Positions 8,503-47,793 of a DNA stretch of 64,000 bases are shown here, piece after piece; positions within the stretch are counted from its first letter, which is position 1, and every line of letters begins with the position of its first letter. The DNA comes from an uncultured bacterium. GTDB taxonomy: Bacteria > Cyanobacteriota > Vampirovibrionia > Gastranaerophilales > Gastranaerophilaceae. Position numbers and translations under genes: made by a program. The DNA lies in assembly GCA_902795965.1 (NCBI GenBank), contig CADBNI010000029.1, positions 5,067 through 69,066 of the forward strand. Direction: 5' to 3'. The notes beneath the pieces are model-generated. The model was not told the origin of the DNA, ran no database searches, and saw only the letters and a list, made by a program, of their open reading frames with translations.

Positions 8503-8826
8503 TTATAAAAGATTTTTTACTACGATATCAACTGCTTTCAGCTTTTGGGTATTATTTTTTATAAACTCTAAATTTGAAATAATTTGTGAATAAATCTTTT
8601 CACTGTCTTCTTTGTCATTTGAACGAAACAAATCCTCAGGAGAAATCTTTAAAATCGTAGAGAGTTTGTCTAAAGTTTTTGCGGAAACAAACCCTTTACC
8701 AGTTTCAATAAGACTGAGCGACTTAACTTCCATTTCCAAAAGCTCCGCGAGTTCACTTTGGGTCAAATTTCTTATTTTGCGGGCTTTTCTGATATTTTCA
8801 CCCAATATTTTACAAACATCCGTCAT
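8503..8826 (-). CDS. XRE/Cro-C1 HTH regulator (cassette 1)
   Basis: LGENIRKARKIRNLTQSELAELLEM...LSLIETGK. Confidence 0.9.
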   Translation of the reverse strand: MTDVCKILGENIRKARKIRNLTQSELAELLEMEVKSLSLIETGKGFVSAKTLDKLSTILKISPEDLFRSNDKEDSEKIYSQIISNLEFIKNNTQKLKAVDIVVKNLL

Positions 8827-8887
8827 TTAATAACTCCTACTTAAAATACTATTGATAAGAAATTATAAGGAAACCCAATCTAATAAC

Positions 8888-8916
8888 TTGACAGAAGTAG
8901 TTTAATACCATATAAT
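8888..8916 (+). promoter_or_regulatory. Consensus sigma70 promoter for pilin-like gene 1
   Basis: TTGACA-17 bp-TATAAT, perfect consensus. Confidence 0.85.
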
Positions 8917-8947
8917 ATGTATATACGGATCCAAAAAGGAGAGTCGC

Positions 8948-9928
8948 ATGGATAATAAAAGTTATGCTTTTACGCTATCAGAAATTCTTATTACTTTAGG
9001 TATTATCGGTGTTGTTGCGGCAATGACTATGCCAGTACTTATCAACAATATCAAGTACCATGGCTATGACGGTGCAAAACGCAAGGTTTTAAATTCAATC
9101 GGCGAGGCGGGACGTCTATTGGCAATCGAAGGAAATTTGGACGGCGCAAGTGATGCCGAAACTTTTGTAAAAGAAAGATTGTCTAAAAAATTGTCTATTG
9201 CAAAAATGTGCGACAGCGCACACCTAACCGATTGCGGATTGCCGAGCAAGTTTTTGAAAACAAATGGCAAAACGGAAATGAACATGCCGACCAAGATGAA
9301 AGGCGGCACTGCAGCAAGTGTATTTAATTATGGAAGTGAGGAAACACAAGCATATGCGGATAAAAACAGTTACGGTTTTGTAACGGGAAACGGCTATAGT
9401 GTAAACTTATTCTACAACGGAGCATGCATACCCGACAAAAGTATGTCTGCAATGTCTACAACGACAGATTCTAATGGAAATCCATATAAATACTACAGAA
9501 TACAAGACCAAATGTGTTTCTTCGCAATTTACGACATGAACGGTAAGGGTGGTCCTAACGTAGTTGGTAAGGATATTGGACTTGTCGGAGTATTCTACCC
9601 GAACGAGGAAACGAAGGCAGTAGCAGCGTTACCTGCGGATTATGATTACAGTGGTGCAGGTCGTGGAGGAGCAAAGTCAACAAGAACGTTCACCACTGCG
9701 CCGAAGGCATGTGATGACCAATTTGGCAAGGACTACCGTATGCCTGATAGGGACGAAGCAGCCCTCATGGCTATGGCAGGCAACCTGCTTGGTATAACGA
9801 ACGGTGGCGGCTACTGGTCCGGTTCAGTAGTTGATTCAGGCTTAGCGTGGCTACAGGACTTCTACGGCGGCAATCGCTACGCCTCTCCGGTTACGTACGG
9901 CACCTACGTCCGGTGCGTCAGGAGATAA
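8948..9928 (+). CDS. Type IV pilin-like protein with C-terminal CLec-type (DGR-target-like) domain
   Basis: A|FTLSEILITLGIIGVVAAMTMP N-methylation motif; C-terminus YWSGS...AW.QDF..G...YVRCVRR. Confidence 0.88.
   Translation: MDNKSYAFTLSEILITLGIIGVVAAMTMPVLINNIKYHGYDGAKRKVLNSIGEAGRLLAIEGNLDGASDAETFVKERLSKKLSIAKMCDSAHLTDCGLPSKFLKTNGKTEMNMPTKMKGGTAASVFNYGSEETQAYADKNSYGFVTGNGYSVNLFYNGACIPDKSMSAMSTTTDSNGNPYKYYRIQDQMCFFAIYDMNGKGGPNVVGKDIGLVGVFYPNEETKAVAALPADYDYSGAGRGGAKSTRTFTTAPKACDDQFGKDYRMPDRDEAALMAMAGNLLGITNGGGYWSGSVVDSGLAWLQDFYGGNRYASPVTYGTYVRCVRR
9797..9928 (+). other. Putative DGR variable region (VR)
   Basis: About 60% GC by hand count versus a much more AT-rich background, many NNC codons, CLec VR motif at the extreme C-terminus. 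Confidence 0.65.
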
Positions 9929-9930
9929 AA

Positions 9931-11811
9931 CTAAAATGCGTGTCTTTCAAGCATTACCATCAAAATTGAAATATCCGCGGGTTTTACACCACCTATTCTT
10001 GAGGCTTGTGCAAGGGTTTTAGGTCGAATTTTTGCCAATTTGTCACGAGTTTCAGACGAAATATGTTCAATTTTTGAATAATCTATATCATCAGGTATCT
10101 TAAACTTGTCCAATTTACCCGCCTGTTCAACCTGCTGCGCCTGACGTTTTAAATATCCGTCATACTTTGTCAAAATTTCAACCTGTTCGGACACATCAAA
10201 CGGAATATTCAACTTCCTTGTCGCCTCATCAATCTTCTTTATAACCTCATAATCAACATTCGGACGTTTCAAAAACTCCGAAATCCTTATCCCTCGGTCA
10301 AGATGTTCGCCATATTGCGCCAAAATCCCGTTTATTTCTTCCGTTGCGGAAATTTTGGCATCTTTTATACGTTCTATTTCCAGCTCAACAGCTTTTTGCT
10401 TATCGGTAAATACCTTAAACTGTGCATCATCAATAAGTCCGATTCTTCTGCCCGTAGGGGTCAATCTTACATCTGCGTTATCCTGTCTTAGCAAAAGTCT
10501 GTATTCCGAGCGCGAAGTAAGCATTCTGTAAGGGTCTTGAATATCTTTTGTTACCAAATCATCAATCAGAGTCCCGATATAAGAAGAACTGCGCGAAAGC
10601 TCCAACATCTCCGAATTATTTATATAATTAAACGCATTTATCCCTGCAACAAGCCCCTGTGCCGCCGCCTCCTCATATCCGCTCGTACCGTTAATCTGTC
10701 CGCCAAAGAACAACCCCTGTATATTCTTTGACATCAAAGAATGTGTGGTCTGAACGGCAGGTACATAATCATATTCAACAGCATAAGCAGGCTTTATAAC
10801 GTGAGCATTTTCAAGCCCCGGGAGAGTTCTGAGCATTTTTAGCTGAACATCTGCGGGCAAACTGCTTGAAAACCCCTGAATATAAACCTCATAAGTTCCG
10901 AGTCCTTCGGGTTCGATAAATATATGATGAGAAGGGTTTTCCGCAAACCGTACAACCTTATCCTCAATAGAAGGACAATATCTCGGACCTACTCCCTGAA
11001 TTAGCCCCTGAAACATTGGTGATTTATCCAAATTCGCCCTAATAATTTCGTGAGTGCGTTCGTTTGTACGAGTCAAATAACAAGGATACTGAGGGCGAAC
11101 GGGACGATTTGGTTTGTAAGAATAAAAATGAAGGGTTTCATCTCCATTTTGGATTGTCATTTTTGAATAATCTATTGTACGCTTATCAACACGCGGAGGA
11201 GTACCTGTTTTTAACTTTTTAATATTAATCCCGTGTTTAATCAAAGATTCGGAAAGTCCATAAGCTGCTTTTTCGCCCATTCTTCCCGCGCTGTAAGAAC
11301 GCAAACCTACAAAGCATCTGCCGTTCAGGGAAGTTCCCGTAGTCAAAACGACAGCCTGAGCAGAGTATTCTATTCCAAACTCGTCAACCGCACCGACTAT
11401 CCTACCGTTTTCGACTTTCAAATCAGTAATACATGCCTGACGAAGATAAATATTTTCATTATTTTCAATAATATTTCTCATATAAGACATATATTGTTTT
11501 TTATCCGATTGAGCGCGCAACGCTCTGACGGCAGGGCCTTTTGACGAATTAAGCATTTTCATCTGAATATAAGTCGCATCGGCAGCTTCACCCATCACTC
11601 CGCCAAGCGCATCAATTTCACGCACAAGCGTTGATTTTGCAGGGCCGCCGATTGCGGGATTGCAAGGCATTAGAGCAATATTATCAATATTAAGCGTTGC
11701 CAAAAGCACCTTTGCTCCTAATTTTGCACATGCAATAGCTGCTTCACAGCCCGCATGCCCCGCACCGACAACAATAATATCGTATTTATTATTCAGATAG
11801 CTCATAAACAT
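9931..11811 (-). CDS. mnmG: tRNA uridine-5-carboxymethylaminomethyl modification enzyme
   Basis: GAGHAGCEAA, PCNPAIGGPAK, GPRYCPSIEDK, GQINGTSGYEEAAAQG. Confidence 0.98.
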   Translation of the reverse strand: MFMSYLNNKYDIIVVGAGHAGCEAAIACAKLGAKVLLATLNIDNIALMPCNPAIGGPAKSTLVREIDALGGVMGEAADATYIQMKMLNSSKGPAVRALRAQSDKKQYMSYMRNIIENNENIYLRQACITDLKVENGRIVGAVDEFGIEYSAQAVVLTTGTSLNGRCFVGLRSYSAGRMGEKAAYGLSESLIKHGINIKKLKTGTPPRVDKRTIDYSKMTIQNGDETLHFYSYKPNRPVRPQYPCYLTRTNERTHEIIRANLDKSPMFQGLIQGVGPRYCPSIEDKVVRFAENPSHHIFIEPEGLGTYEVYIQGFSSSLPADVQLKMLRTLPGLENAHVIKPAYAVEYDYVPAVQTTHSLMSKNIQGLFFGGQINGTSGYEEAAAQGLVAGINAFNYINNSEMLELSRSSSYIGTLIDDLVTKDIQDPYRMLTSRSEYRLLLRQDNADVRLTPTGRRIGLIDDAQFKVFTDKQKAVELEIERIKDAKISATEEINGILAQYGEHLDRGIRISEFLKRPNVDYEVIKKIDEATRKLNIPFDVSEQVEILTKYDGYLKRQAQQVEQAGKLDKFKIPDDIDYSKIEHISSETRDKLAKIRPKTLAQASRIGGVKPADISILMVMLERHAF

Positions 11812-11886
11812 ATTATAACACCAATATTTTTATCTTTACATTTAGAGTTGATTAGTATTAATATAAGAACATAAGGAGGCAAGAAT

Positions 11887-12396
11887 ATGTTAGATAAGAA
11901 AATGGAAGATGCTTTCAACAGTCAGATTAATGCGGAATTGTATTCCGAGTATTTTTATTTGTCAATGAAGGCTTATTTTGAAACATTGAACCTTAAAGGT
12001 TTTGTAAACTGGATGAATGTACAAATTCAGGAAGAACACGCTCATGCAATGGGAATGTTTGATTACGTAAACACCCGCGGCGGCAGAGTTGTTTTGAAAG
12101 CTATTGATGCACCGAAAACGGAATGGCATTCCGTTTTGGAAGTTTTTGAAGATATTTTGAAACACGAACAGTTGGTAACATCATTGATTAACAAACTTGC
12201 AGATGTAGCTGATGAAGTCAAAGACCGCGCGGCTTTGAGCTTTTTGAACTGGTATATAAAAGAACAGGTAGAGGAAGAAGAAAGTGTTGGCGGTGTGCTT
12301 GCGACTTTGCAGTTAATCGGTGACGATAAAAACGCACTGTTTACGCTTGATAAAGAACTTGCTACACGCGTATTCAATCCGCCCGTAATAGGTTAG
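11887..12396 (+). CDS. ftnA: Non-heme ferritin
   Basis: QINAELYSEYFYLSM...QEEHAHAM...WYIKEQVEEE ferroxidase motifs. Confidence 0.93.
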   Translation: MLDKKMEDAFNSQINAELYSEYFYLSMKAYFETLNLKGFVNWMNVQIQEEHAHAMGMFDYVNTRGGRVVLKAIDAPKTEWHSVLEVFEDILKHEQLVTSLINKLADVADEVKDRAALSFLNWYIKEQVEEEESVGGVLATLQLIGDDKNALFTLDKELATRVFNPPVIG

Positions 12397-12406
12397 TTAT
12401 AAAGTC

Positions 12407-12433
12407 AAAAAGGTCGGGAAACCGACCTTTTTT
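12407..12433. terminator. Bidirectional intrinsic terminator
   Basis: aaaaaggtcgg-gaaa-ccgaccttttt between convergent ftnA and higA. Confidence 0.85.
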
Positions 12434-12746
12434 ATATAGCTTTTTGTTTTTTTACAATATTAAACGGTATAATATTTGACAAATCTTTTTCAATTTTACG
12501 TTCCGATTCCAATAGTTCAAAATTGTTTTGCAGACGCAGAAAATACCCTTTTGAAAGCCCTAAATATTTGGTTAATCTCAAATCCGTATCGGCAGTAATT
12601 GACCGTTGTCCTCTGATGATTGCATTAATGCGATTTGACGGCACACCAATAGCGTTTGCAAGTGCATTCTGTGATAACCCTAACGGGTTCAAAAATTCTT
12701 CTTGCAAAACTTCGCCTATATGCGGTATGTCGATAAATTGTGGCAT
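12432..12746 (-). CDS. higA: HigA-family antitoxin
   Basis: HIGEVLQEEFLNPLGLSQNALANAIGV..NRINAIIRGQRSITAD. Confidence 0.92.
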   Translation of the reverse strand: MPQFIDIPHIGEVLQEEFLNPLGLSQNALANAIGVPSNRINAIIRGQRSITADTDLRLTKYLGLSKGYFLRLQNNFELLESERKIEKDLSNIIPFNIVKKQKAI

Positions 12747-12822
12747 AACATTCTCCTTTACTTATATTATGTACTACGTACAACATAAAATCAAGTACCT
12801 AAAAGAATTATTTTTATAAAAC

Positions 12823-13104
12823 TTAATGATAATCTGCTATTTCAACATCATATGCGCTATTATTTTTCCATACAAAACAAACACGCCATTGAGCGTTTAT
12901 CCTTATAGAATATTGTCCTGCTCTATCGCCTTTAAGTTGTTCAAGAAAATTTGACGGTGGTATAAGCAAATCGTCAATAATTTCGGCAGTATCAATCATA
13001 TGCAATTTAATAAAAGCCCTGCGTTGAATATCTTGCGGTAGTTTCTTAGAAAACCGTCCTTTGTATATTTTTTCGGTTTCTTTGCACTTAAAGGTTTTTA
13101 TCAT
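12823..13104 (-). CDS. higB: HigB/RelE-family toxin
   Basis: MIKTF...PSNFLEQLKGDRAGQYSIRINAQWRVCF; upstream of the antitoxin. Confidence 0.92.
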   Translation of the reverse strand: MIKTFKCKETEKIYKGRFSKKLPQDIQRRAFIKLHMIDTAEIIDDLLIPPSNFLEQLKGDRAGQYSIRINAQWRVCFVWKNNSAYDVEIADYH

Positions 13105-13230
13105 GTTATGATTATAACATAAAATCTCCTATAAATAATTTAAATAGTTATATGTTGAACATTATTTGATACTGTGATTTAGGGTTATAAAAAATCTGTC
13201 TTACTGGTAGCAGGTAGGTCGGATAACACG

Positions 13231-14373: not shown

Positions 14374-14375
14374 TT

Positions 14376-14654
14376 TTATACTCTCCTTTCATATAACTGA
14401 TATGCAAAATAAATTGCGGTCAAAACATTGACTATCATCCATATAGGTTTTCCAAGCGGCATTTTGATAATTGGATTATATAAAATTGCAAGTGCAATAA
14501 AAATTGTAATTGTTTCAGTATCAAGTTTAGTTTTTGTTATTACTTCATATATTAACCCAAAACAAATAAAAAATCGGAGTAAGATATAATAACCATAAGG
14601 TAATGGCAATAAAGCAAAAAATAAAAGTATTATAAGAAATATTAGAACTAACAT
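14376..14654 (-). CDS. Small membrane protein (DUF6804-like)
   Basis: LPYGYYILLRF...LYNPIIKMPLGKPIWMIVN. Confidence 0.7.
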   Translation of the reverse strand: MLVLIFLIILLFFALLPLPYGYYILLRFFICFGLIYEVITKTKLDTETITIFIALAILYNPIIKMPLGKPIWMIVNVLTAIYFAYQLYERRV

Positions 14655-14667
14655 ATTAATACCTTAT

Positions 14668-15294
14668 TTAATATAATGTCTGCGCTTCTTGAAATACTAA
14701 ATTCATAAATTTTAATGAAGCGGCTATTGTAAAACTTATTATTGCTTCATCAATATCAGGTAAATTAAATTGAGATACAAAATCTGTAATTACTTTTTTG
14801 GATTGCTTAGTGAATTTATATATTTCTGGTATGGATGCCGTCTTAGAGTAAAATGTTTTACCTATTATTTTTATTTTTGCATCAAAATTGTCAAAATAAG
14901 ATATTAATAAATTCATATCCTCAAAAGACAATCCTTTAATATGCACATTATAAAGTTGTGTATATTTTAATACATCTCCAATTAAAACTTTTTTCATATT
15001 ATCATTAAAATTAGTGTCTAAAGCACAATTTGTTATCGATATAAAATAAAAATACATTACAACTTCAAACATTGTATCATAATATTTTTCAGGATAATAA
15101 CCGTTTTTTCTAATGTAACTTATGTATGGAATATAAAAATTTTCATTATCATATCCATTATAATTTTGTGAAATGGTAGTTTGTGGTCTATCAATATAAT
15201 CAACAGCTTTACATGCAGAGCGAATGATAAATGCGAACAAGCGTATTATCAATATACAGGTAAATATTATAATAAATGCAACAAGTTTCATCAA
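14668..15294 (-). CDS. Hypothetical membrane-anchored protein
   Basis: 208 aa ORF with N-terminal hydrophobic segment. Confidence 0.7.
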   Translation of the reverse strand: MMKLVAFIIIFTCILIIRLFAFIIRSACKAVDYIDRPQTTISQNYNGYDNENFYIPYISYIRKNGYYPEKYYDTMFEVVMYFYFISITNCALDTNFNDNMKKVLIGDVLKYTQLYNVHIKGLSFEDMNLLISYFDNFDAKIKIIGKTFYSKTASIPEIYKFTKQSKKVITDFVSQFNLPDIDEAIISFTIAASLKFMNLVFQEAQTLY

Positions 15295-15527: not shown

Positions 15528-15920
15528 GTGGTAAATGAGCTTTTAAACATAGGTCTAAAGATTAGAGAACAAAGAAAGATGTTAGGGTTTTCGCAAGCTG
15601 AACTTGCGGAAATGGTAGATATTACAGGAAAACAAATTCATCGTATAGAATGTGGAAAATGTTCTCCTGCAGCTATAACAATACTTAAAATTATAAAAGT
15701 ATTAAAAATGGATATCAGAGTTTTGGATATTGACAATTTAAACAATTTTAACCCTTTAAGAGATGAGATTTATTCTTTATTAGCCGATGCAACTGATGAA
15801 GAATTATTTATGTACCGCAATGTTATTGATACAATAAGAAGAAGTCAACGACTAACAACAAGACAACGTCAAGAAATTAAAAAAGCAACAAATCTGAAAC
15901 AAAAGGAATTAAAAAAATAA
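15528..15920 (+). CDS. XRE-family HTH regulator
   Basis: IGLKIREQRKMLGFSQAELAEMVDI...IHRIECGK. Confidence 0.88.
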   Translation: MVNELLNIGLKIREQRKMLGFSQAELAEMVDITGKQIHRIECGKCSPAAITILKIIKVLKMDIRVLDIDNLNNFNPLRDEIYSLLADATDEELFMYRNVIDTIRRSQRLTTRQRQEIKKATNLKQKELKK

Positions 15921-29271: not shown

Positions 29272-29478
29272 CTATTTTTTTGTAATTGTAATCTTATAAC
29301 CTAAATGGTCAAGTATGTTGAATACTTCGCTAAATCTTATTGTGCCATTGCGAAATTTTGATGAAATGTTGTTTGATAATGGCATTTTTATACCTTTTTC
29401 ACGCAATTCTCTTAGGACTCTTGCCATTGATTTACACTCTTTAACCAATAATATTTTAATTTCTTCATGTATGTTCAT
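29272..29478 (-). CDS. Small Cro-like HTH protein (cassette 2); likely start MNIHEE
   Basis: IKILLVKECKSMARVLREL...NNISSKFRNGTIRFSEVFNILDHLGYKI; homologous to 40281-40490. Confidence 0.72.
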   Translation of the reverse strand: MNIHEEIKILLVKECKSMARVLRELREKGIKMPLSNNISSKFRNGTIRFSEVFNILDHLGYKITITKK

Positions 29479-29507
29479 GCATTTTATTTTAGCTAAATTC
29501 AATGTTA

Positions 29508-29536
29508 TTGACAAAATAATAAGTACATGATATTAA
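29508..29536 (+). promoter_or_regulatory. sigma70-like promoter for pilin-like gene 2
   Basis: TTGACA-17 bp-TATTAA. Confidence 0.55.
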
Positions 29537-29604
29537 TATTTATGTTAATATGCTATATTGATGAATTGCAATAAAAATATAGTATGAATATTAAGGAGAA
29601 AAAT

Positions 29605-30261
29605 ATGAGTAAAAATGGTTTTACCTTAGCGGAAGTTTTGATAACATTGGGAATAATAGGTGTTGTTGCTGCAATTACAATGCCGTCACTCATAAAACAT
29701 TATCAGCAACAGGTTGTTATAAGCAGGCTAAAAAAATTCTATACAAACATTAATCAGGCAATAAAAATGTCGGAAGTTGAAAACGGCAGTTGCGAAAACT
29801 GGGATATGCCCACAGGCGATGGAAATTATGTCGGTTTGGCGTTTTTTAACAAATATTTGGCAAATTATTTAAAGTATCATGATGTATCGCTTAGCGATAT
29901 AGTTACATATGATGAACATGGCAACAAAAATGCTATCCAAAGGTACCTGATAAAATTTGCAGATGGTTCCGCCATGACAATTCATTACAGTGGTGGTATA
30001 GATATATCTTTCTATATTTACGCATCAAAAATTACTGATGCACAATTGGGTAAAAATAAATTTTCATTTGATTTTGAGAAAAACAACTCTAAGTCGAAAA
30101 AATGTTCGGTTGAACCATACACACTCACATGGGACGGAACAAGAGAACATTTAAAAACACACCCAAGATACGGGTGTAGTGAAACCTCGATAGCAAAAAC
30201 ATTTTGTGCAAAACTTATACAATATGACGGTTGGAAAATCAGTAAAGACTATCCTTGGTAA
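29605..30261 (+). CDS. Type IV pilin-like protein (cassette 2)
   Basis: RBS AAGGAG, MSKNG|FTLAEVLITLGIIGVVAA; ends CAKLIQYDGWKISKDYPW. Confidence 0.9.
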   Translation: MSKNGFTLAEVLITLGIIGVVAAITMPSLIKHYQQQVVISRLKKFYTNINQAIKMSEVENGSCENWDMPTGDGNYVGLAFFNKYLANYLKYHDVSLSDIVTYDEHGNKNAIQRYLIKFADGSAMTIHYSGGIDISFYIYASKITDAQLGKNKFSFDFEKNNSKSKKCSVEPYTLTWDGTREHLKTHPRYGCSETSIAKTFCAKLIQYDGWKISKDYPW

Positions 30262-33255: not shown

Positions 33256-34179
33256 TTACCAGGGATAATCCTTGCTGATTTTCCAACCGTCATGCATTAT
33301 TTTTGCTGCGCAATATACTCCGCTACCGTTGCATTCCCCGTTTGGATAGCCATACGGGACAATTTGTCCGTTAGCCGTTCTTATAAAGAAAAACACATCT
33401 CTTCCCAGTTTATTTGGTTGTTTAGCTCCATTCAAATCAACTGTCATATATCCGCCGGCATTACCCGGTTTTGCCATGATTTGGAGTAAAGTCCCGTCCC
33501 CCAATATCATAGTAATTCTACTTCCGCTTCCTGTTATATCGTGGCCGTGAACATTCCCGTTAAGATCATAAAATGGCTTGATTGAGGTATAACCGCAATC
33601 ACTCGGAGAAGTACATAATTTTGCAGATTTTAAATAAGGTTTCCAATAAATTCTATAATAATTAGAAATACCGATATCATCAATAGCCTGCCAATTTACA
33701 TACTCTCCGTTTTCTGCTTCCGACAATTTCATTGCCTGATTTAATATTGAATAAAACTTTTTTAATTGTGTTACGGTTTTATGTTTTTGATAATTTGTAA
33801 TCATAACAGGCATGGTTATCGCCGCGACAACTCCGATAATGCCAAGGGTAATGAGGACTTCAGCGAGGGTAAAGGCGGATTTCTTGGCAGACTTTCCGTC
33901 TTTCACGTCATTCTGAACTTGTTTCAGAATCTCGTCTTGAGATGCTGAATCGCGGAGGTCAATCCGACGTTCAGCATGACGGAATGTCTGTTGTGAGAAG
34001 TGAAATGTGAAAGGTGAGAAGTTCTTTAAGGGTAATATTGAACCCCTCACCCGCATTTGTACGGCTCCGCCTACAAATGCTCCCTCTCCCCGTTGGGGCG
34101 AGGGATGATTTTTTGTAAATTCTTTACTCACTCCACTCACCTCACTAACTTCACTCACTCTCTTATTATCTTTGTTCAT
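33256..34179 (-). CDS. Type IV pilin-like protein with 102-aa repeat-derived leader (cassette 3)
   Basis: KSA|FTLAEVLITLGIIGVVAA after the leader; ends CAAKIMHDGWKISKDYPW; RBS AGGAGG. Confidence 0.88.
   Translation of the reverse strand: MNKDNKRVSEVSEVSGVSKEFTKNHPSPQRGEGAFVGGAVQMRVRGSILPLKNFSPFTFHFSQQTFRHAERRIDLRDSASQDEILKQVQNDVKDGKSAKKSAFTLAEVLITLGIIGVVAAITMPVMITNYQKHKTVTQLKKFYSILNQAMKLSEAENGEYVNWQAIDDIGISNYYRIYWKPYLKSAKLCTSPSDCGYTSIKPFYDLNGNVHGHDITGSGSRITMILGDGTLLQIMAKPGNAGGYMTVDLNGAKQPNKLGRDVFFFIRTANGQIVPYGYPNGECNGSGVYCAAKIMHDGWKISKDYPW
33906..34161. repeat. Stack of four repeat types within the pilin leader
   Basis: GTCA-REP pair 33906-33981; heptamers 33993-34020; CCCCTCACCC..CCCTCTCCC..GAGGG palindrome 34043-34104; nonamers 34126-34161. 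Confidence 0.8.
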
Positions 34180-34230
34180 AAATACCTCCTTTGTTAATAT
34201 ACATTACAGAATAAAACATGTTTACATGTA

Positions 34231-34259
34231 ATTATAACATGTATAGTTATATTATTCAA
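34231..34259 (-). promoter_or_regulatory. sigma70 promoter for pilin-like gene 3 with ACATGT palindromes
   Basis: Reverse strand TTGAAT-17 bp-TATAAT; three ACATGT sites at 34216-34242. Confidence 0.75.
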
Positions 34260-34290
34260 CCCTTTAAATTAAAATTGATAAAATAAGTTT

Positions 34291-34497
34291 ATGATTAAGA
34301 ACAGATTATCAATAATTTTGGGCGAGCAGAGAATGCGAGTATCAGAGCTTTCGAGGTTGACAGGTATAAGCCAGAATGCGCTCAACAATATTTATCATAA
34401 TAAAACTAAAGGTGTTGATTTTGATACTTTAAACAGGATTTGTAATGTATTAAGATGCAATTCTCAAGAGTTATTTGAATTTACGCCTGATACATAA
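34291..34497 (+). CDS. XRE/Cro-C1 HTH regulator (cassette 3)
   Basis: MIKNRLSIILGEQRMRVSELSRLTGISQNALNNIYHNKTKGVDFDTLNRIC. Confidence 0.9.
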   Translation: MIKNRLSIILGEQRMRVSELSRLTGISQNALNNIYHNKTKGVDFDTLNRICNVLRCNSQELFEFTPDT

Positions 34498-39551: not shown

Positions 39552-39553
39552 AT

Positions 39554-40168
39554 TCAGAATTTGAACGGGTAATCTTTTGGAATTTTCCAACCGTTCATTT
39601 GTATTAATTTGGTACAATGTGCAGGATTTGATGTATCTGCTCTGCAACCGAAATAACTGTCGTTTAAAAACTCTTCAACCGTTTCATATTCCTGTCCGCC
39701 ATATTCATAAGGCATAACTGCACCTTCCTCTACACGGAACATAAATGGAAAATATTCTCGACCTGCCAATTTGCTTTCTTTTGACCAGTTGGCTGCTACC
39801 GGACAAAAATTCCACCCATATGCCGAAATACTCAACAAACTGCCATCTGCAAAATATATATCAACTACATTAACATTATGTAATTCGTTATATTCAACTT
39901 TCAGAGGTTTTAAATATTTGGCGAGATATTTTTTATACCACTCCTCTGATTTTCTCAATGTCAAAGCATCCCAATATTCAGTTTCAGAATTATCAATTTC
40001 AGACATCTTGATTGCTTGATTTATTACCGAATAAAATTTTGCCAATCGAGTTTCAACAACACTTTTCTTATAGTTCTGCACAAGTACAGGTATCGTCATT
40101 GCCGCAACTACACCGATTATTCCTATGGTTATCAAAACTTCCGCAAGAGTAAAAGCTCTTTTATTCAT
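39554..40168 (-). CDS. Type IV pilin-like protein (cassette 4)
   Basis: MNKRA|FTLAEVLITIGIIGVVAA; ends CTKLIQMNGWKIPKDYPFKF. Confidence 0.9.
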   Translation of the reverse strand: MNKRAFTLAEVLITIGIIGVVAAMTIPVLVQNYKKSVVETRLAKFYSVINQAIKMSEIDNSETEYWDALTLRKSEEWYKKYLAKYLKPLKVEYNELHNVNVVDIYFADGSLLSISAYGWNFCPVAANWSKESKLAGREYFPFMFRVEEGAVMPYEYGGQEYETVEEFLNDSYFGCRADTSNPAHCTKLIQMNGWKIPKDYPFKF

Positions 40169-40233
40169 AGAATTTTCCTTTCTGATTTACATAATTCTTA
40201 ATAATTCAATTAAATTCATGACGTGTTAAGAAT

Positions 40234-40262
40234 ATTATAACCTGTTTTAGAAAATTTGTCAA
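40234..40262 (-). promoter_or_regulatory. Consensus sigma70 promoter for pilin-like gene 4
   Basis: Reverse strand TTGACA-17 bp-TATAAT. Confidence 0.85.
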
Positions 40263-40280
40263 GTACAATATAATTAAATT

Positions 40281-40490
40281 ATGGATATAAGAAACGATAT
40301 TAAATATTGCATGGCACGCGAAGCCGTCACATTCAAACGATTAGCCGAATTAATGACCGAAAAAACAGGGAAGAAATATACAATCAACAGCCTTTCGGGA
40401 AAACTTATCCGTGAAAGCATTACACTTAAAGAAGCATTACAAGTATTAGAGATTTTAGGATACGACCTCAATATTAATAAACGCCCATAA
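40281..40490 (+). CDS. Small Cro-like HTH protein (cassette 4)
   Basis: IKYCMAREAVTFKRLAELMTEK...NSLSGKLIRESITLKEALQVLEILGYDL; homologous to 29272-29478. Confidence 0.78.
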   Translation: MDIRNDIKYCMAREAVTFKRLAELMTEKTGKKYTINSLSGKLIRESITLKEALQVLEILGYDLNINKRP

Positions 40491-41614: not shown

Positions 41615-41719
41615 AATTGACCTCCTTTCCTCGGAACAATCGACCGAAATCGAAGTATTAACTGTTGTGTCGATGTTTCTTGGATTAGAGTATCTTTTAC
41701 CCTGTATCAATGTTCAAAA

Positions 41720-41741
41720 AAGGCGGAAAATTTTCCGCCTT
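41720..41741 (-). terminator. aspS intrinsic terminator
   Basis: aaggcgg-aaaatttt-ccgcctt with a T-run on the reverse strand. Confidence 0.75.
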
Positions 41742-41750
41742 CTAAAAATG

Positions 41751-43529
41751 TTATTTTGTATGTGCCGTACTCTTTAAATGAAGTTCTCTCAACTGCTGTA
41801 ATGAGGCTTCACCCGGAGCATCACTCATAAGATCTTTAGCACCTGAATTTTTCGGGAATGCTATTACATCTCTGATACTTTCCGTTCTGCACAACAGAGC
41901 AACAAGTCTGTCCAAACCGATTGCAAGTCCTGCATGAGGCGGAGTTCCGTATTGCAGGGCATTTACCATAAATCCGAATTTTTCTTCGGCTTCTTCCTGA
42001 GTTAAGCCAAGAGCCTTAAAGATTGCCGACTGAACTTCCGATGAATGAATTCTGACAGATCCTCCGCCCAACTCTGTTCCGTTATAAACGATATCATAAG
42101 CGATTGATTTTACGTTACCCAAATCACCCGATTTTAATTTGTCCAAATCCTCAATACAAGGTGATGTGAACGGGTGGTGCATTGCCATAAATCTGCCTTC
42201 TTCATCAGACCATTCAAACATCGGGAAATCAACAACCCAAAGAAGATTGTGTTTGCTTTCGTCAATCAAATCCAATCTTTTACCGAAATACAATCTCAAT
42301 CTGCCCATAATGTCATAAACCAATTTCGGCTTATCTGCAACAAAGAAGATTATATCGCCACTTTGAGCCTGTGCGCGATCTTGAATAGCTTTTGCCTGTT
42401 CTTCGGTCACAAACTTGAGTACGGGAGATTTTGCCGTTCCGTCCTCATTATAAATAATATTCGCAAGAGCTTTCGCACCGAATGAAACAGCCAATTTCGT
42501 AATATCATCAATATCTTTTCTTGAGAATTTAGCACCGCCGGGGATTCTTATACCGCGAACTATACCACCGTTTTCAAGCGTATTTTTAACAATTTGAAAT
42601 TCCGATTGAAGAATAATATCTCCGATATCAAAGAGTTCCAAGCCAAATCTCGTATCGGGTTTGTCGGAACCGTATCTGTCCATAGCCTCCTGCCAAGGCA
42701 TTTGAATAAACGGAGGTTTAACCTCAACACCCGCAGCTTTGAATGTATCTACAATCAAACCTTCTACGGTTTTTATTACATCCTGTTGTTCCACAAACGA
42801 CATTTCAAGGTCAATCTGCGTAAACTCGGGCTGTCTGTCCGCACGCAAATCTTCATCTCTGAAACATTTTGCGATTTGGTAATATTTTTCGATACCGCCG
42901 ACCATCAACAGTTGTTTAAAAATTTGAGGAGATTGAGGAAGTGCATAGAACTTCCCTTCCTGAACACGAGAAGGAACAAGGTAATCTCTCGCACCTTCGG
43001 GAGTTGTTTTAATCAAAATCGGAGTTTCAACTTCCAAAAAGTCCTGATTATTCAAATAATTGCGTGCCGCCTGACAAATTTTATGACGTAAAGTCAAATT
43101 ATGAAGCATACTTTCACGTCTTATATCAAGGTATCTGTATTTCAAGCGAACATCTTCCGATACGTTTTCATCATCAAGGACAAAAGGTAAAGTTTTTGCC
43201 TCTGACAAGATTTCGACAAATTCGGGATACATTTCAACCTGTCCCGTCGGATATTTTTCGTTGTAAGTTTCTTCGGGACGTTTTGAAACTTTTCCTTTTA
43301 CCGTAATAACATATTCGGATCTGACTTTTTCAAAAACTTTATGGACTTCGGGATTGATTTGAGGGTTTGCCACCAACTGGAAAAATCCGCTTCTGTCACG
43401 CAATTCAATAAACAAAATTCCGCCGAGGTCACGAATAGTTGATGCCCAGCCCGATAGTGTAACTTCTTCATTCAAATTGCTTAGATTTAATTCTCCGCAA
43501 TTATGGTCTTTCAATCGTGTTTTTATCAT
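41751..43529 (-). CDS. aspS: Aspartate-tRNA ligase
   Basis: RDLGGILFIELRDRSG, FYALPQSPQ, FRDEDLRADRQPEFTQ, PPHAGLAIGLDR. Confidence 0.98.
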   Translation of the reverse strand: MIKTRLKDHNCGELNLSNLNEEVTLSGWASTIRDLGGILFIELRDRSGFFQLVANPQINPEVHKVFEKVRSEYVITVKGKVSKRPEETYNEKYPTGQVEMYPEFVEILSEAKTLPFVLDDENVSEDVRLKYRYLDIRRESMLHNLTLRHKICQAARNYLNNQDFLEVETPILIKTTPEGARDYLVPSRVQEGKFYALPQSPQIFKQLLMVGGIEKYYQIAKCFRDEDLRADRQPEFTQIDLEMSFVEQQDVIKTVEGLIVDTFKAAGVEVKPPFIQMPWQEAMDRYGSDKPDTRFGLELFDIGDIILQSEFQIVKNTLENGGIVRGIRIPGGAKFSRKDIDDITKLAVSFGAKALANIIYNEDGTAKSPVLKFVTEEQAKAIQDRAQAQSGDIIFFVADKPKLVYDIMGRLRLYFGKRLDLIDESKHNLLWVVDFPMFEWSDEEGRFMAMHHPFTSPCIEDLDKLKSGDLGNVKSIAYDIVYNGTELGGGSVRIHSSEVQSAIFKALGLTQEEAEEKFGFMVNALQYGTPPHAGLAIGLDRLVALLCRTESIRDVIAFPKNSGAKDLMSDAPGEASLQQLRELHLKSTAHTK

Positions 43530-43628
43530 TTCTTCCTTCTTTCTGTATGGACTTAACATAAGTTTAACAAAAACATGAAAAATATTAAATATTTTTTAAA
43601 TTTTATTAAATTAAGTTACTAACGTAAT

Positions 43629-43661
43629 AAGGCACTAAGCCGAATATAAACTTAGTGCCTT
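43629..43661. terminator. Hairpin downstream of the SPFH gene
   Basis: aaggcactaag...cttagtgcctt 11-bp stem. Confidence 0.6.
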
Positions 43662-43684
43662 AATTACAATATTTTATTTTATTT

Positions 43685-44656
43685 TTATTTTTTATCAAAC
43701 ATTTGTTTGATACCGTCAACGGAAGACAAAATACCCGTAGCCTCATAAGGCATATAAACGACTTTGTTGTCTTTGCCGTCTGTAATTGCAGTCAAGGTTT
43801 CAAGATATTTCATTGCGATAAGATATTTGTCGGGCTGGCCTTTGTCTGCCAAAGCATCAATAATTCTTTGAATGGCTTCTTTTTCGGCATCAGCTTCAAT
43901 AATACGAGCCTGCGCAACACCTTCCGCTCTCAAAATTTCCGCCTGCTTTGCACCTTCAGCGGTTCTGATTGCGGCTTCTCTTTCACCTTCCGCATTTTTA
44001 ATTGCAGCTTCTTTAAGACCTTCGGCTTCCGTAATACGAGCCTGCTTATCTCTGTCAGCTTTCATCAATTTATCCATTGATGCTTGAATATCAGCGGGCG
44101 GGAAAATATCCTGAATTTCAACACGATTAACCTTGACACCCCATTTGTTGGTTGCCTCGTCAAGCGTTGTTCTGAGTTCATCATTAATTTTTCCGCGGGA
44201 AGTCAAAGTTTCTTGCAAATCCATTTGACCTACCAGGTTTCTTAAAGTTGTCTGAGTCAATTTTTCAATAGCATCAGGCAGGTTTTCAATTTCATAAACC
44301 GCACTTTTGGCGTCAACAATTTGGAAATAAATCAATGCGTTAATCGTGATTGAAACGTTATCCTTTGTAATTACGTTTTGGCGGGGAAAATCATACATTT
44401 GTTCTCTCAAATCAATTCGGTCAACAGCTTTGAGATAATAATAACTTCTTCCGTCAAGACCTTTTTGTGAAACTTTTTTCAAAATTCCTCTGGGAGCTTC
44501 CAATATCGGAAAAATAAAATTAGGACCTGCACGCAAAGTTTTTTCGTAACGTCCCATTCTTTCAATGATAACTTCCTGTTGCTGTTGAACAATGATAATG
44601 CCTTTGAAAACATAAATCAAAAGAGCAACAAATAAAATCAGTAATAAAATTGACAT
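43685..44656 (-). CDS. SPFH/band 7 (QmcA-like) protein
   Basis: ITKDNVSITINA, LTQTTLRNLVG, WGVKVNRVEI, AEG repeats. Confidence 0.93.
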   Translation of the reverse strand: MSILLLILFVALLIYVFKGIIIVQQQQEVIIERMGRYEKTLRAGPNFIFPILEAPRGILKKVSQKGLDGRSYYYLKAVDRIDLREQMYDFPRQNVITKDNVSITINALIYFQIVDAKSAVYEIENLPDAIEKLTQTTLRNLVGQMDLQETLTSRGKINDELRTTLDEATNKWGVKVNRVEIQDIFPPADIQASMDKLMKADRDKQARITEAEGLKEAAIKNAEGEREAAIRTAEGAKQAEILRAEGVAQARIIEADAEKEAIQRIIDALADKGQPDKYLIAMKYLETLTAITDGKDNKVVYMPYEATGILSSVDGIKQMFDKK

Positions 44657-44658
44657 AA

Positions 44659-45084
44659 TTATATCCTTTCTACGGTTAATACCAAACTGTCATATTTCAC
44701 AATACGTACTTCTTCTCCTGCGGGAATAGGTTCATCAACCTCGGCGCGTGCTTCCCAACGTTCGTCATAAATTGAAATAGCTCCCGAAAATTTACCGACA
44801 GGTTCTTTCACTTTAACAATTTTACCGATATATTTACCCTCCATACCGGTTTCTTTTTCCTTGTCATTTTTGTTTTTAACCAAAATAGGACGTAAAAACA
44901 GAATTGAAAGTATTGATAAAACGACAAAAATTACCGTCAAATTAATCCAATTTTCAATAAACAATGCAAATACAGCCGTAATAAATCCCGCTACCGCAAG
45001 ATTTAAGAAAAACATTGAGGGGACGAGCATTTCAAGAATAATAAAAATCAACCCCGCAATAGCAAAAACCTGCCACAAAACCAT
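44659..45084 (-). CDS. NfeD-family protein
   Basis: Hydrophobic N-terminus, ERWEA...GEEVRIV OB-fold; canonical partner of SPFH. Confidence 0.88.
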   Translation of the reverse strand: MVLWQVFAIAGLIFIILEMLVPSMFFLNLAVAGFITAVFALFIENWINLTVIFVVLSILSILFLRPILVKNKNDKEKETGMEGKYIGKIVKVKEPVGKFSGAISIYDERWEARAEVDEPIPAGEEVRIVKYDSLVLTVERI

Positions 45085-45138
45085 TTACTCTCTCCTTTTT
45101 ACAAAAGGATTTTAACATATTTTTCGGTATTCGTCAAC

Positions 45139-45168
45139 AAAAAAGCTCCTCAAAATGAGGAGCTTTTT
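45139..45168. terminator. Intrinsic terminator
   Basis: aaaaaagctcctc-aaaat-gaggagcttttt. Confidence 0.8.
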
Positions 45169-45182
45169 ATATAATTAATTTA

Positions 45183-45941
45183 CTAAACCAATTCAACAAC
45201 TTTCAAAGCGTTTCTTGATGCGATTTCAACAAGACTTTTTACTGTTGCCATCATTGACAAAGTTGAATCCATTTTGTTGATGCAAGAACCGCAGCCGATA
45301 GCTGATGCACCTGCCGCAAACGCAAACGGTGCAGTTGTCGGATTGATTGCTGTTGCTGTCATAATCGGCAAATCAATGTTTCTTGAAAGTTCAATCGTAT
45401 TGGAAATAGTCAATTCAGCTCTTTCCATCAAGCCTTTAACACCTTCCGATACGCTGCTTGAAGAATAATGACCTTCTGTTTGAATCAAATCAATACCCAT
45501 AGTTTCCAATTTTCTGCCCAATTCGATTTGTTCATTAATTGAAAGAGTTCCGGGAATTGTTACGCTGAAAAATACTTTAGTGTCACCCAACAAGCTCAAT
45601 GTTTCGCTAACCAAAGACAAAACGCTTTCTGCTGAGAATGACATACCTTTTTTGTAAAGAACGTCAAAGTTACCCAATTCGATTGCATCTGCGCCTAATT
45701 CAACCGCTTTAACCAATTCTGACGGAACGATTGATGATACAAAAATCGGCATATCCGTCATTTCTCTGATTTCGGAAACGATTTCGGGTTTTGCACAGAT
45801 ATCAACAGCGGATGCTCCGCCTTGTTCTGCTGATGTAACAACTTTTTTGATATTTTCGATATCAAAATTGTCGATACCCGCAATAACTTTTACTGCTCTT
45901 TTTTCTGTCAAATGTTGTCTAAATGTTTCAATTCTGCTCAT
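45183..45941 (-). CDS. DUF561/Ycf23-family protein
   Basis: VKVIAGIDNFD, ELGNFD.LY, AAGASAIGCGS. Confidence 0.8.
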   Translation of the reverse strand: MSRIETFRQHLTEKRAVKVIAGIDNFDIENIKKVVTSAEQGGASAVDICAKPEIVSEIREMTDMPIFVSSIVPSELVKAVELGADAIELGNFDVLYKKGMSFSAESVLSLVSETLSLLGDTKVFFSVTIPGTLSINEQIELGRKLETMGIDLIQTEGHYSSSSVSEGVKGLMERAELTISNTIELSRNIDLPIMTATAINPTTAPFAFAAGASAIGCGSCINKMDSTLSMMATVKSLVEIASRNALKVVELV

Positions 45942-46079
45942 AATAATTTTCCTTTCACATAAATTCTTGAGTAGATTATACATTAAAATTGTAATAATTA
46001 CAATAACTAATCCGAAAAAATTTTTCGGCATAATGCATTACGGAAAAAAATGTGAAAACATTGGGTTGTGAGGGATAAT

Positions 46080-46775
46080 ATGAGAAAAAAATTTATTGCA
46101 ATCTTTATTTATACAATTTTTGCCATGCCCGTATTCGCACAAAATTTCAGTGCGGACGAAATGCTTAATATAAATATTTATGAAAAAGTCAGTCCCGCAA
46201 TCGTGTCGATTGACGCAAATCTTGATGACGGATTTTCTGCGGGAACGGGTTGTGTTGTCAGGTCGGACGGAATAATCCTTACGGGTTCGCACGTAATTGA
46301 GGGCGCAAAAGATATTGACGTAACAACTTCGGGCGGTAAAATTTATAAGGCTACAATTTTGAAAGACAAATTAGGCAAAAATAAAGACCTTGCTATATTA
46401 AAAATCAATCCGAAACAAAATTTAAAAACCGTTGTATTCGGAGATTCAGAGCAGGTTAAAGTAGGGCAGAAAATTCTTGCAATCGGCAATCCGTTTGGAT
46501 TTTCGGGAACATTAACCTCAGGGATTGTGTCAAGAATTGACTACACAAAAGGCAGAATACAAACAGACGCGGCAATAAACCCCGGGTGTTCGGGCGGACC
46601 GCTTGTAAATTCACAGGGTGAAGTTATAGGAATTTCTCAGTCAATTTACAACCCCGATAACAATATTTCAAATATCGGAATAGGCTTTGCAATCCCCGTT
46701 AATGAGGCAAAAAAATACCTGACCGCCTCAAGCCTGAACGAACTAACCAACAAACAAAAATTTGCAAGCAAATAA
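46080..46775 (+). CDS. Trypsin-like serine protease (HtrA-like, no PDZ)
   Basis: Signal peptide, ILTGSHV, DLAIL, QTDAAINPGCSGGPL. Confidence 0.9.
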   Translation: MRKKFIAIFIYTIFAMPVFAQNFSADEMLNINIYEKVSPAIVSIDANLDDGFSAGTGCVVRSDGIILTGSHVIEGAKDIDVTTSGGKIYKATILKDKLGKNKDLAILKINPKQNLKTVVFGDSEQVKVGQKILAIGNPFGFSGTLTSGIVSRIDYTKGRIQTDAAINPGCSGGPLVNSQGEVIGISQSIYNPDNNISNIGIGFAIPVNEAKKYLTASSLNELTNKQKFASK

Positions 46776-47441
46776 TTACCAAGGATAGTCTTTACTGATT
46801 TTCCAACCGTCCGTTAATATTAAAGCAGAACAAGCAGTTCCGATGCTTTTACAATTCATTATAATACTATCTCTTTCTTCAGGCTCGGTAAACGCTTTAA
46901 TTTGCCCGCTTGGTTCGACTTTAAATCTGAAAACATCTTTACCATAGACGTTTGGTTTATTGTTTCCGTTTATATCAATTATTAAAACTATTATACCCGG
47001 ATCTCCGGGAGGTCTTGAAACAAGGACCTCCGAGCCGTTCGCAAGAAACAATCTTTGCGCCCTTTCACTATAATAAACAAGTTCGTAAGCAGGTTGTGGC
47101 GGATTTCCATCCATAGTACCTCTGTCAAATTCACATTCACCAACAGTTGAACAATTACATTTTTTCAGAACTTTTAGGTATGGTTCAAAATACTTTTCAC
47201 TTACCTGCACAGCATTTTCGCAACCATAATATTGAGAATCAACAAAAATTTCATCATAATCTTTTATTGCTAAATTTAAAGCCTGAGAAAGTAAAGCATA
47301 AGTACTTTTTAAACGGCTAACCGTAACATGCTTTTGATAATTAGTAATCACAGTCGGCATGGTAACCGCTGCAACAACACCTATTATGCCAAGAGTAATA
47401 AGAACTTCAGCTAAAGTAAAGGCTCTTTTATTTAATGCCAT
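46776..47441 (-). CDS. Type IV pilin-like protein (cassette 5)
   Basis: MALNKRA|FTLAEVLITLGIIGVVAA; ends CSALILTDGWKISKDYPW. Confidence 0.9.
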   Translation of the reverse strand: MALNKRAFTLAEVLITLGIIGVVAAVTMPTVITNYQKHVTVSRLKSTYALLSQALNLAIKDYDEIFVDSQYYGCENAVQVSEKYFEPYLKVLKKCNCSTVGECEFDRGTMDGNPPQPAYELVYYSERAQRLFLANGSEVLVSRPPGDPGIIVLIIDINGNNKPNVYGKDVFRFKVEPSGQIKAFTEPEERDSIIMNCKSIGTACSALILTDGWKISKDYPW

Positions 47442-47464
47442 AATAACTCCTTCCTTATACACTC

Positions 47465-47493
47465 ATGTTAATCATATTTTTTAAAAATTTCAA
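47465..47493 (-). promoter_or_regulatory. sigma70-like promoter for pilin-like gene 5
   Basis: Reverse strand TTGAAA-17 bp-TAACAT; ACATGATTTT direct repeat just upstream. Confidence 0.6.
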
Positions 47494-47583
47494 TACGCTA
47501 AAACCTAATTGTAACATGATTTTACATGATTTTTGTAGAAATTATTCGACTGAAAAATAACAAATACATTTTAAAATATAAAA

Positions 47584-47793
47584 ATGGGGCTTAAAAAGAT
47601 ACAAAACGAATTAGGCAGAAGATTGCGCGATTTGAGGCTTGAAAGAGAGCTTACTCAGGAAGAATTGGCTTTTGAAGTGAAAATATCAAGAGATCACCTC
47701 TCAAACATTGAAAACGGTAAATTCCCGATAAATATCAAGACACTTTACAAATTATCAAAATTTTTTGATGTTGATATTAAGTATTTCTTTTAA
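47584..47793 (+). CDS. XRE/Cro-C1 HTH regulator (cassette 5)
   Basis: LGRRLRDLRLERELTQEELAFEVKISRDHLSNIENGK. Confidence 0.92.
   Translation: MGLKKIQNELGRRLRDLRLERELTQEELAFEVKISRDHLSNIENGKFPINIKTLYKLSKFFDVDIKYFF

Follow-up and report, generated by a model that had tools for sequence, protein, structure and literature searches.

The stretch of DNA analyzed here, henceforth the window, spans 64,000 nucleotides of contig CADBNI010000029.1 (assembly GCA_902795965.1) from an uncultured bacterium of the Gastranaerophilaceae and carries five two-gene cassettes, in each of which a pilin-like gene stands head-to-head with a small helix-turn-helix (HTH) regulator gene. All five pairs lie where a preliminary description of the sequence had placed them, and its count of five out of five holds: the only N_methyl proteins of the window are the five paired pilins. 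The neighbors of these units are unrelated housekeeping genes, as it had also noted, namely those for a TPR protein and mnmG, pnp and pfkB, prfB, ribF, and a trypsin-like protease and mlaE. Each of the five pilin-like proteins scores above the Pfam N_methyl cut-off as well as the NCBIfam TIGR02532 cut-off (16.3 bits) and carries the prepilin motif (K/N)(G/A)FTLAEVLITLGIIGVVAA, including Glu5 of the methylation and cleavage motif. DUF6613 is matched by three or four of them, and the C-terminus reads GWKI(S/P)KDYP(W/F) in four. The regulators belong to at least two HTH families, again in agreement with the preliminary description. Those at 8503, 34291 and 47584 contain an HTH_3-clan domain above cut-off (HTH_3, HTH_19 or HTH_26), and those at 29272 and 40281 come from a separate family of 23 proteins of ca. 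70 amino acids, here termed the third HTH family, which was gathered with a hidden Markov model (HMM) built in this analysis and matches DUF6471 below cut-off.

This arrangement recurs throughout the source genome, a 1.81-Mb metagenome-assembled genome (97% complete, 85 contigs). Profile searches of the whole genome returned 136 N_methyl, 143 HTH_3 and 66 DUF6613 matches. With the third HTH family included, 116 of the 136 pilin-like genes (85%) are paired with a small divergent HTH gene upstream, across a median gap of 121 bp (range 0-384 bp); the partners comprise 95 Xre-type proteins and 21 members of the third HTH family. With crude gene calls, a divergent HTH gene is the upstream neighbor of 87/119 pilins (ca. 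73%) versus 18/1680 other genes (ca. 1%), extending to the whole genome the pairing that had been reported for the window. About six of the 20 unpaired pilin-like genes lie at contig ends, and about six others, with atypical N-termini, lie in operons and are probably true machinery pilins. The cassettes total 130 kb, or 7.2% of the genome, and comprise ca. 230 genes. As previously proposed, the members of the repertoire are scattered, each with a regulator and a strong promoter to itself, and there is no silent-cassette locus. Many contigs break inside or beside pilin-like genes (C21:216, C64:29, C85:15339, C71:14418, and also C22, C49, C35, C36 and C53). The N-terminal coding stretch is conserved across pilin paralogs (72-88% DNA identity) and probably breaks assembly, such that all pilin counts are lower bounds. 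The features of the five window cassettes are collected in Table 1.

Table 1. Genes, promoters and repeats of the five cassettes, in window coordinates.
Feature	Position	Strand	Basis
Cassette 1 regulator, 107-amino-acid Xre-type HTH with C-terminal extension and Shine-Dalgarno motif	8503..8826	-	Pfam HTH_19/HTH_3/HTH_26 above cut-off
Cassette 1 gap: TTGACA 8888-8893, 17 nt, TATAAT 8911-8916, pilin ATG 60 nt on	8827..8947	+	sequence
Cassette 1 pilin-like, 326 amino acids, long class, C-terminus weakly Lcl_C-like	8948..9928	+	N_methyl and TIGR02532 above cut-off
Cassette 2 regulator, 68 amino acids (ATG 29478), third HTH family (DUF6471-like)	29272..29478	-	own HMM, E 8e-29; family fold
Cassette 2 HTH promoter, TTGTCA-17-TAAAAT, -10 ending 7 nt before ATG	29514-29486	-	promoter scan
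Cassette 2 gap: pilin -35 TTGACA 29508-29513, overlapping opposite-strand HTH -35 TTGTCA 29514-29509	29479..29604	+	promoter scan, sequence
Cassette 2 palindrome ATATTAA/TTAATAT, at and past the -10	within 29479..29604		sequence
Cassette 2 pilin-like, 218 amino acids, DUF6613, C-terminus GWKISKDYPW	29605..30261	+	DUF6613 E 3e-24, N_methyl
Cassette 3 pilin-like; pilin proper from ca. 33906 (VKDGKS..AFTLAEV), frame open to Shine-Dalgarno motif and ATG at 34179	33256..34179	-	open reading frame, N_methyl
Cassette 3 gap: TTGAAT 34259-34254, 17 nt, TATAAT 34236-34231	34180..34290	-	promoter scan, sequence
Cassette 3 ACATGT boxes, three, around the -10	34242-34237, 34229-34224, 34221-34216		sequence
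Cassette 3 regulator, 68 amino acids, HTH_26 (Cro/C1-type); -10-like TAAAAT ending 6 nt before ATG	34291..34497	+	HTH_26 E 1.6e-20
Cassette 4 pilin-like, 204 amino acids, DUF6613	39554..40168	-	Pfam
Cassette 4 pilin promoter: TTGACA 40262-40257, 17 nt, TATAAT 40239-40234	gap 40169..40280	-	promoter scan
Cassette 4 HTH promoter: TTTAGA 40246-40251, 17 nt, TATAAT 40269-40274, 6 nt before HTH ATG		+	promoter scan
Cassette 4 regulator, 69 amino acids, third HTH family, mRNA probably leaderless	40281..40490	+	own HMM, E 1e-31; DUF6471 E 2e-4, below cut-off
Cassette 5 pilin-like, 221 amino acids, C-terminus GWKISKDYPW	46776..47441	-	N_methyl above cut-off
Cassette 5 gap: tandem AAAATCATGT repeat 47533-47514, then TACAAT; second promoter-like site 47493-47465 (9/12)	47442..47583	-	
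Cassette 5 regulator, 69 amino acids, HTH_3; -10-like TAAAAT ending 6 nt before ATG	47584..47793	+	HTH_3 E 3e-16

The structural model of the cassette 2 pilin (predicted local distance difference test, pLDDT, 93) shows an N-terminal helix of 53 residues (8-60) and a head formed by a five- to six-stranded β-sheet. A Foldseek search of this model against the PDB gave no pilin or other match at E<0.05. Profile searches located a prepilin peptidase (PilD; Peptidase_A24) at C38:11913-12266 and four T2SSE-family ATPases in the genome, one of them in the window, where a gene for a PilB/PilT/GspE-like member of this family sits just past cassette 5 (48807-50189, minus strand). The cassette 1 pilin, the C-terminus of which (9700-9928) weakly resembles the Lcl C-terminal lectin-like domain, belongs to a class of ca. 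330 amino acids whose members share 83-92% DNA identity over ca. 500 nt and have unrelated HTH partners. DUF6613 occurs in 18/18 congeners examined and in 0/12 genomes from other families. Pilin-like genes number 17-112 per genome in the genus (median 73) and have a median of 13.5 in other families of the order. Within the genus, pilin counts correlate with the numbers of HTH candidates in the same genomes (rho 0.60), the latter being a loose count only; the source genome has by far the most.

The regulators appear to be kept mutually distinct, as judged from their sequences: all partner HTHs in the genome differ from each other, with 58% identity between the closest two and a median of 29%. 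An AlphaFold model of the third HTH family (pLDDT 94) has a four-helix fold that finds its best matches in HipB, C.Esp1396I, TP901-1 CI and POU-specific domains, lambda-repressor-like HTH domains without exception, with template modeling (TM) scores of 0.66-0.69 and a probability of 0.9 or more. Owing to the small size of the protein, the Foldseek E-values are weak, and a profile search of the family against PDB sequences gave nothing meaningful.

Small HTH genes also occur apart from pilins. Two more small HTH_3 genes are present in the window (14668-15294(-) / 15528-15920(+); 12432-12746(-)), one of which faces a membrane-anchored non-pilin of 208 amino acids. Elsewhere in the genome, some unpaired small HTH genes face other paralogous families, among them GT2-type glycosyltransferases and proteins starting with MTEVSKVGQ (C26:4501, C32:31791, C46:9848; C21:34473, C59:14466, C61:1046, C66:27507), so that the design with a private regulator may reach beyond pilins to further surface-related genes.

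The shared gaps are markedly asymmetric in their promoters. A perfect TTGACA is found on the pilin strand of 74/116 gaps and on the HTH strand of 3/116, as compared with 23/184 control divergent gaps when either strand is counted; it lies ca. 77 nt before the pilin start and is followed after ca. 17 nt by a TATAAT-like box. In the window, the two perfect TTGACA-17-TATAAT promoters that had been reported are those of cassettes 1 and 4, the latter being the sole 12/12 match of the promoter scan in 20 kb, and cassettes 2 and 3 score 10/12. We used the complete genome of 'Candidatus Melainabacteria bacterium MEL.A1' (CP017245.1; MEL.A1 in the following), a member of the same genus, for comparison. 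There, TTGACA precedes 16/31 paired versus 5/48 unpaired pilins (p=8e-5), which indicates that the strong promoter goes with having a regulator.

On the opposite strand, 43% of partner HTH genes have a TATAAT-like hexamer that ends 6-7 nt ahead of the start codon, the distribution peaking sharply at 6 nt, and a TATAAT-like box ending 4-10 nt before the start is present in 59/116 HTH genes versus 175/1219 other genes (p=4e-18). A Shine-Dalgarno-like motif precedes 30% of HTH genes, 72% of pilins and 51% of other genes. In HTH genes, such a motif and a near-start -10 box are nearly exclusive, 55 genes having the box without the motif and 4 having both. Given a -10 box 6-7 nt from the ATG and no ribosome-binding site, about half of the regulators are probably translated from leaderless mRNAs. 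A -10-like box exactly 6 nt before the start also occurs in ca. 8% of ordinary genes; leaderless mRNAs may thus be common in this organism. The weak HTH promoter and the strong pilin promoter, as predicted, often interlock: the pilin -35 lies most often 15-20 nt from the HTH ATG, the -35 of the HTH gene falls within the pilin spacer in cassette 4, and the -35 hexamers overlap on opposite strands in cassette 2.

Apart from this common layout, each gap is private. The gaps share 12-mers at approximately the background rate and have no common motif, and no DNA similarity between cassettes was detected outside the pilin coding region. The repeated ACATG boxes that the preliminary description had seen in some gaps are real in cassette 3 but not general. 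Their genome-wide enrichment is just 2.4-2.8x, which makes ACATG a private motif of some cassettes, and we dropped it as a candidate general operator. Private repeats overlie the promoter in many gaps, with TTCATGTATACATGA (twice) and ACGCGTATACGCGT among the examples elsewhere. Inverted repeats at the promoters are modestly longer than in shuffled or control promoters (6.9 vs 6.2 in shuffles, p~8e-4), and a few gaps contain unique palindromes with arms of 13-22 nt. In the orthologous gaps of MEL.A1, both the spacer and the palindromes beside it are retained, e.g., TATCAAT..TTGACAAATTGATA and TTAGTAAT..ATTACTAA.

We consider it probable that each regulator is a private repressor that gates the strong promoter of its pilin-like gene. 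In the proposed mechanism, the gene for a small lambda-repressor-like HTH protein would be read from a weak promoter, often into a leaderless mRNA, and this promoter would interlock with or back onto the near-consensus sigma-70 promoter of the pilin-like gene. The protein would bind cassette-specific sites in the 110-150 bp gap, hold the strong promoter off and set its own level. A consensus promoter needs no activator, and since the two promoters interlock, a single protein bound there could govern both. With no two HTHs and no two gaps alike, the ca. 116 pilin-like genes would be separately controllable, each being silenced or released independently of the others. The pilin-like proteins, which combine a class III signal peptide with a variable head, would presumably be processed by PilD and displayed as binding subunits by the type IV filament machinery. 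From the DNA we infer binding at the gap, repression and any ON/OFF behavior.

A refinement of this mechanism, and the version closest to the idea of the preliminary description, is that the HTH acts as a dual activator-repressor in the manner of lambda CI at PRM/PR or of restriction-modification (R-M) controller proteins, blocking the pilin promoter and stimulating its own, and thereby creates a heritable two-state switch and phase variation. The geometry does resemble half of the lambda switch, in that a strong target promoter interlocks with a weak one that yields a leaderless regulator mRNA. There is no second repressor, and negative autoregulation alone would damp noise, not create it. 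The cI/cro-type switch that had been invoked by analogy is not what the cassettes encode, since each has a single HTH and the divergent partner is a pilin. The mRNA of the controller protein C.PvuII is leaderless, and this protein is an autogenous activator and repressor (PMC2175313). The PADLOC models for R-M 'Control_protein' are hit by the partner HTHs at E~1e-9, and a structural match was obtained to C.Esp1396I (TM 0.66). On balance, we regard a dual switch as possible but rather unlikely.

The regulators could also be condition-specific, each pilin being induced by its own signal, such as a host glycan or a partner protein, in which case variation would not be stochastic. Most HTHs are bare DNA-binding domains of 68-80 amino acids with no room for a sensor, and a hundred signals seems implausible for a 1.8-Mb genome. 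We hold this reading to be improbable, even though ca. 40% of partner HTHs reach 95-120 amino acids and their C-terminal extension could accommodate a ligand or partner, and pilins of the long class have a lectin-like Lcl_C-type domain at the C-terminus.

Private repression of a strong pilin promoter, the reading we prefer, also has several points against it. The assembly is fragmented into 85 contigs, and gene calls and gene starts are heuristic. Approximately 36% of the gaps have no perfect -35, and the HTHs of 68-70 amino acids have no sensor domain. Statistical support for operator palindromes is modest, and palindromes with at least two G/C per arm are not enriched (29/116 gaps vs 43/184 controls), such that the assignment of operators draws mainly on single cases and on conservation between species. 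Just 31/79 pilin-like genes (39%) are paired in MEL.A1 versus 104/118 (88%) in the source genome with the same pipeline, and 31/72 testable pilins are paired in other Gastranaerophilales genomes (80 loci). Finally, the pilin head is without a match among solved structures, and we infer display on pili from the N-terminus and the machinery alone.

Comparison with MEL.A1 separates a conserved from a variable part of the cassette. Twenty-two of its 31 partner HTHs have orthologs among the partner HTHs of the source genome (63-87% identity), and the adjoining gaps align. The pilins beside these 22 orthologous HTHs are only 16-56% identical, and the best cross-genome pilin match never exceeds 55%. 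At one syntenic locus, a flanking 900-amino-acid gene product is 86% and the HTH 72% identical, and the pilins (239 vs 340 amino acids) are alignable only over their first 54 residues; the neighboring pilin is of a different class in the two genomes. At a second, the flanks are 60-85%, the HTH 87% and the pilin 34% identical. This orthology of HTH and gap next to unlike pilins suggests that HTH and promoter form a stable private expression site with exchangeable pilin cargo, i.e., the regulator and promoter look like a stable unit, behind which the pilin body would over evolutionary time be replaced or diverge extremely fast.

The preliminary description had considered that cassettes might be mobile as units, a view at odds with the data. 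HTHs and pilins show no co-phylogeny (Mantel rho -0.11 for Xre-type partners, n=88; +0.10 for the third HTH family, not significant), pilins up to 98% identical lie beside unrelated HTHs, and DNA homology begins at the pilin start codon. Neither repeats nor target duplications flank cassette 2, and between species the HTH and promoter are conserved and the pilin body changes. Duplication or mobility as a unit was therefore rejected. The conserved 5' coding end and the DYPW-type 3' coding end, the latter averaging 75% identity, offer homology for pilin exchange, and recombination there may be how pilin bodies are swapped.

Repeat elements were seen near the pilin N-terminus in both genomes. In cassette 3, ca. 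270 nt of repeat elements (33907-34179, minus strand; VSEVSEVSGVS, PSPQRGEG, FSPFTFHFS, hairpins) lie between the Shine-Dalgarno motif with its ATG and the pilin motif, and pieces of them precede other pilins (FSPFTFHFS on contig C85, HGGGKNCL on C73 and C52); small repeat elements thus seem to land between promoter and pilin N-terminus. An element with the hairpin GCTACGCACGTAGC occurs 33 times in MEL.A1, 22 of these copies lying within 300 nt of a pilin motif (e.g., near 686609, 945659 and 546109; L101-L194). In at least six MEL.A1 pilins this element is inserted in frame right after AFTLAE, with the motif duplicated (AFTLAEGATHVAHWNNSRKIAFTLAEVLITL). The source genome has no copies of this hairpin element.

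Cassettes are not fixed within the genus, as the preliminary description had anticipated: their presence varies among same-genus genomes, and cassettes 2 and 5 are absent from the syntenic sites of 9 and ca. 29 congeners, respectively. At the pnp-pfkB junction, two congeners are empty (111-126-bp gap) and seven carry an unrelated gene for ca. 720 amino acids, cassette 2 being found in the source genome only. The protease-mlaE junction is empty in ca. 16 congeners and occupied by a class IV aminotransferase gene in ca. 13, without a cassette in any of them. Around pnp, species of the genus show a scrambled order of genes (window 8034-48033 compared with loci L081-L100), only pnp and pfkB staying adjacent; the PNPase proteins of those congeners are 90-97% identical.

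Presence and absence at syntenic sites would also be expected if adjacency reflected history and not regulation, with the pairs arising by preferential insertion or as remnants of a mobile element, a toxin-antitoxin system or a defense module. In two congeners, the closest homologs of the cassette 5 regulator (L213, G046:C42:119500-123000; L214, G036:C41:23500-27000) adjoin a stand-alone tyrosine recombinase of 187 amino acids (Phage_integrase, E 3e-30) and face a secreted non-pilin, and generic Xre matches to antitoxin models exist. We nevertheless judge this explanation highly improbable. A strong promoter, a leaderless HTH start and a fixed head-to-head geometry are conserved over more than 100 cassettes, and no recombinase, repeat or target duplication was found at the cassettes. 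A type II toxin-antitoxin system with an Xre antitoxin was rejected, the divergent orientation being wrong for such an operon and the HipB, PezA, HigA and MqsA matches lying far below cut-offs. Membership in a PADLOC defense system was likewise rejected, since the pilins match nothing and the HTHs only generic HTH models, with defense matches far short of their cut-offs. Phage-borne cassettes were ruled out with only 3 weak partial matches in 2.9 million viral contigs. The source genome itself encodes three such stand-alone recombinases (C2:10760-11320, C21:21007-21525, C46:36161-36607), possibly acting as global recombinases.

Private repression and pilin exchange could be joined into a new type of regulator-based surface variation, in which ca. 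100 fixed sites would combine orthogonal, leaderless, CI- or C-protein-like autoregulated repressors with interlocked consensus promoters, pilin bodies would be swapped by recombination at the conserved coding ends, and ON/OFF states would be heritable. We hold this whole to be doubtful. If it were true, each cell would carry its own subset of pilus adhesins, and the genome would contain a natural library of repressor/operator pairs, ca. 100 in number and mutually orthogonal. Slippage at homopolymers of the HTH genes was considered separately as a route to phase variation and rejected, as runs of at least 8 are no commoner there than in controls.

Gastranaerophilales are common, uncultured inhabitants of human and animal guts whose contact with the host is almost unstudied. 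That ca. 7% of the DNA is spent on one two-gene design points to strong selection for surface proteins that are numerous, individually controlled and fast-changing. Should the regulators work in the proposed way, surface variation would require neither DNA rearrangement nor silent copies, and ca. 100 small, natural, non-cross-reacting repressor/operator pairs on consensus sigma-70 promoters could find use in genetic circuits. The pairing also gives a handle on the DUF6613 pilin head family, which is of unknown function and has no solved relative.

As far as we searched the literature, no published description of this pilin/private-HTH layout was found. Full-text searches returned nothing on DUF6613 and no link of Gastranaerophilales or Melainabacteria pilins to regulators, and the MEL.A1 genome paper never mentions pili. 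The nearest regulatory analogs are R-M controller proteins and lambda CI at PRM/PR. Controller proteins such as C.PvuII, C.Esp1396I and C.AhdI are, like the HTHs of the window, Xre-type proteins of 70-80 amino acids, and they autoregulate via private palindromic boxes overlapping their own promoter. They are, however, co-transcribed with the nuclease gene and time its expression after transfer, whereas the HTH gene here is divergent from the pilin-like gene, has pilin-like and housekeeping neighbors instead of adjacent R-M genes, and occurs in ca. 116 copies in one genome. At lambda PRM/PR and in Tn10 tetR/tetA, a repressor gene diverges from a weak promoter (leaderless for cI), with operators in between and a strong target promoter adjoining or overlapping. 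In contrast, the cassettes have no Cro-like second repressor and no inducer-binding domain, and their target is a surface protein and not a regulator or pump. The lack of an R-M gene sets the cassettes apart from the C-protein class, and the lack of a second repressor from the lambda class.

Large sets of pilin-like proteins are known from other bacteria. The PilE-like genes of Elusimicrobium minutum and the N_methyl+DUF1559 proteins of planctomycetes comprise tens to hundreds of class III signal-peptide proteins of unknown function; to our knowledge, no private divergent regulator has been reported for either family. In Streptococcus sanguinis, PilB and PilC join a pilin N-terminal module to a variable head thought to confer adhesion (PMC8179133, PMC9934059). 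A genome encodes only a handful of these modular pilins, within the pil operon, whereas more than 100 are dispersed here, each with its own promoter and regulator, and the DUF6613 head has no solved relative. Neisseria varies its pilus through one expressed locus, pilE, and promoterless silent pilS copies that are used by gene conversion. Both repertoires are large and vary in the middle of the pilin while conserving its ends, and the cassettes likewise give evidence that pilin bodies are exchanged; unlike in Neisseria, each gene here comes with a complete promoter, its own start codon and a private regulator. In Bacteroides, capsular polysaccharide loci are controlled by invertible promoters together with UpxY and UpxZ, through DNA inversion, antitermination and trans-inhibition. 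Cassette-linked recombinases and flanking inverted repeats, as expected of such promoters or of invertible promoters of the fim type, were not seen at the five window gaps, which are flanked only by short, imperfect, AT-rich inverted repeats, none of them convincing, and have no recombinase adjacent. What the two systems share is a gut commensal with many alternative surface loci and locus-specific regulators, which make for a variable surface.

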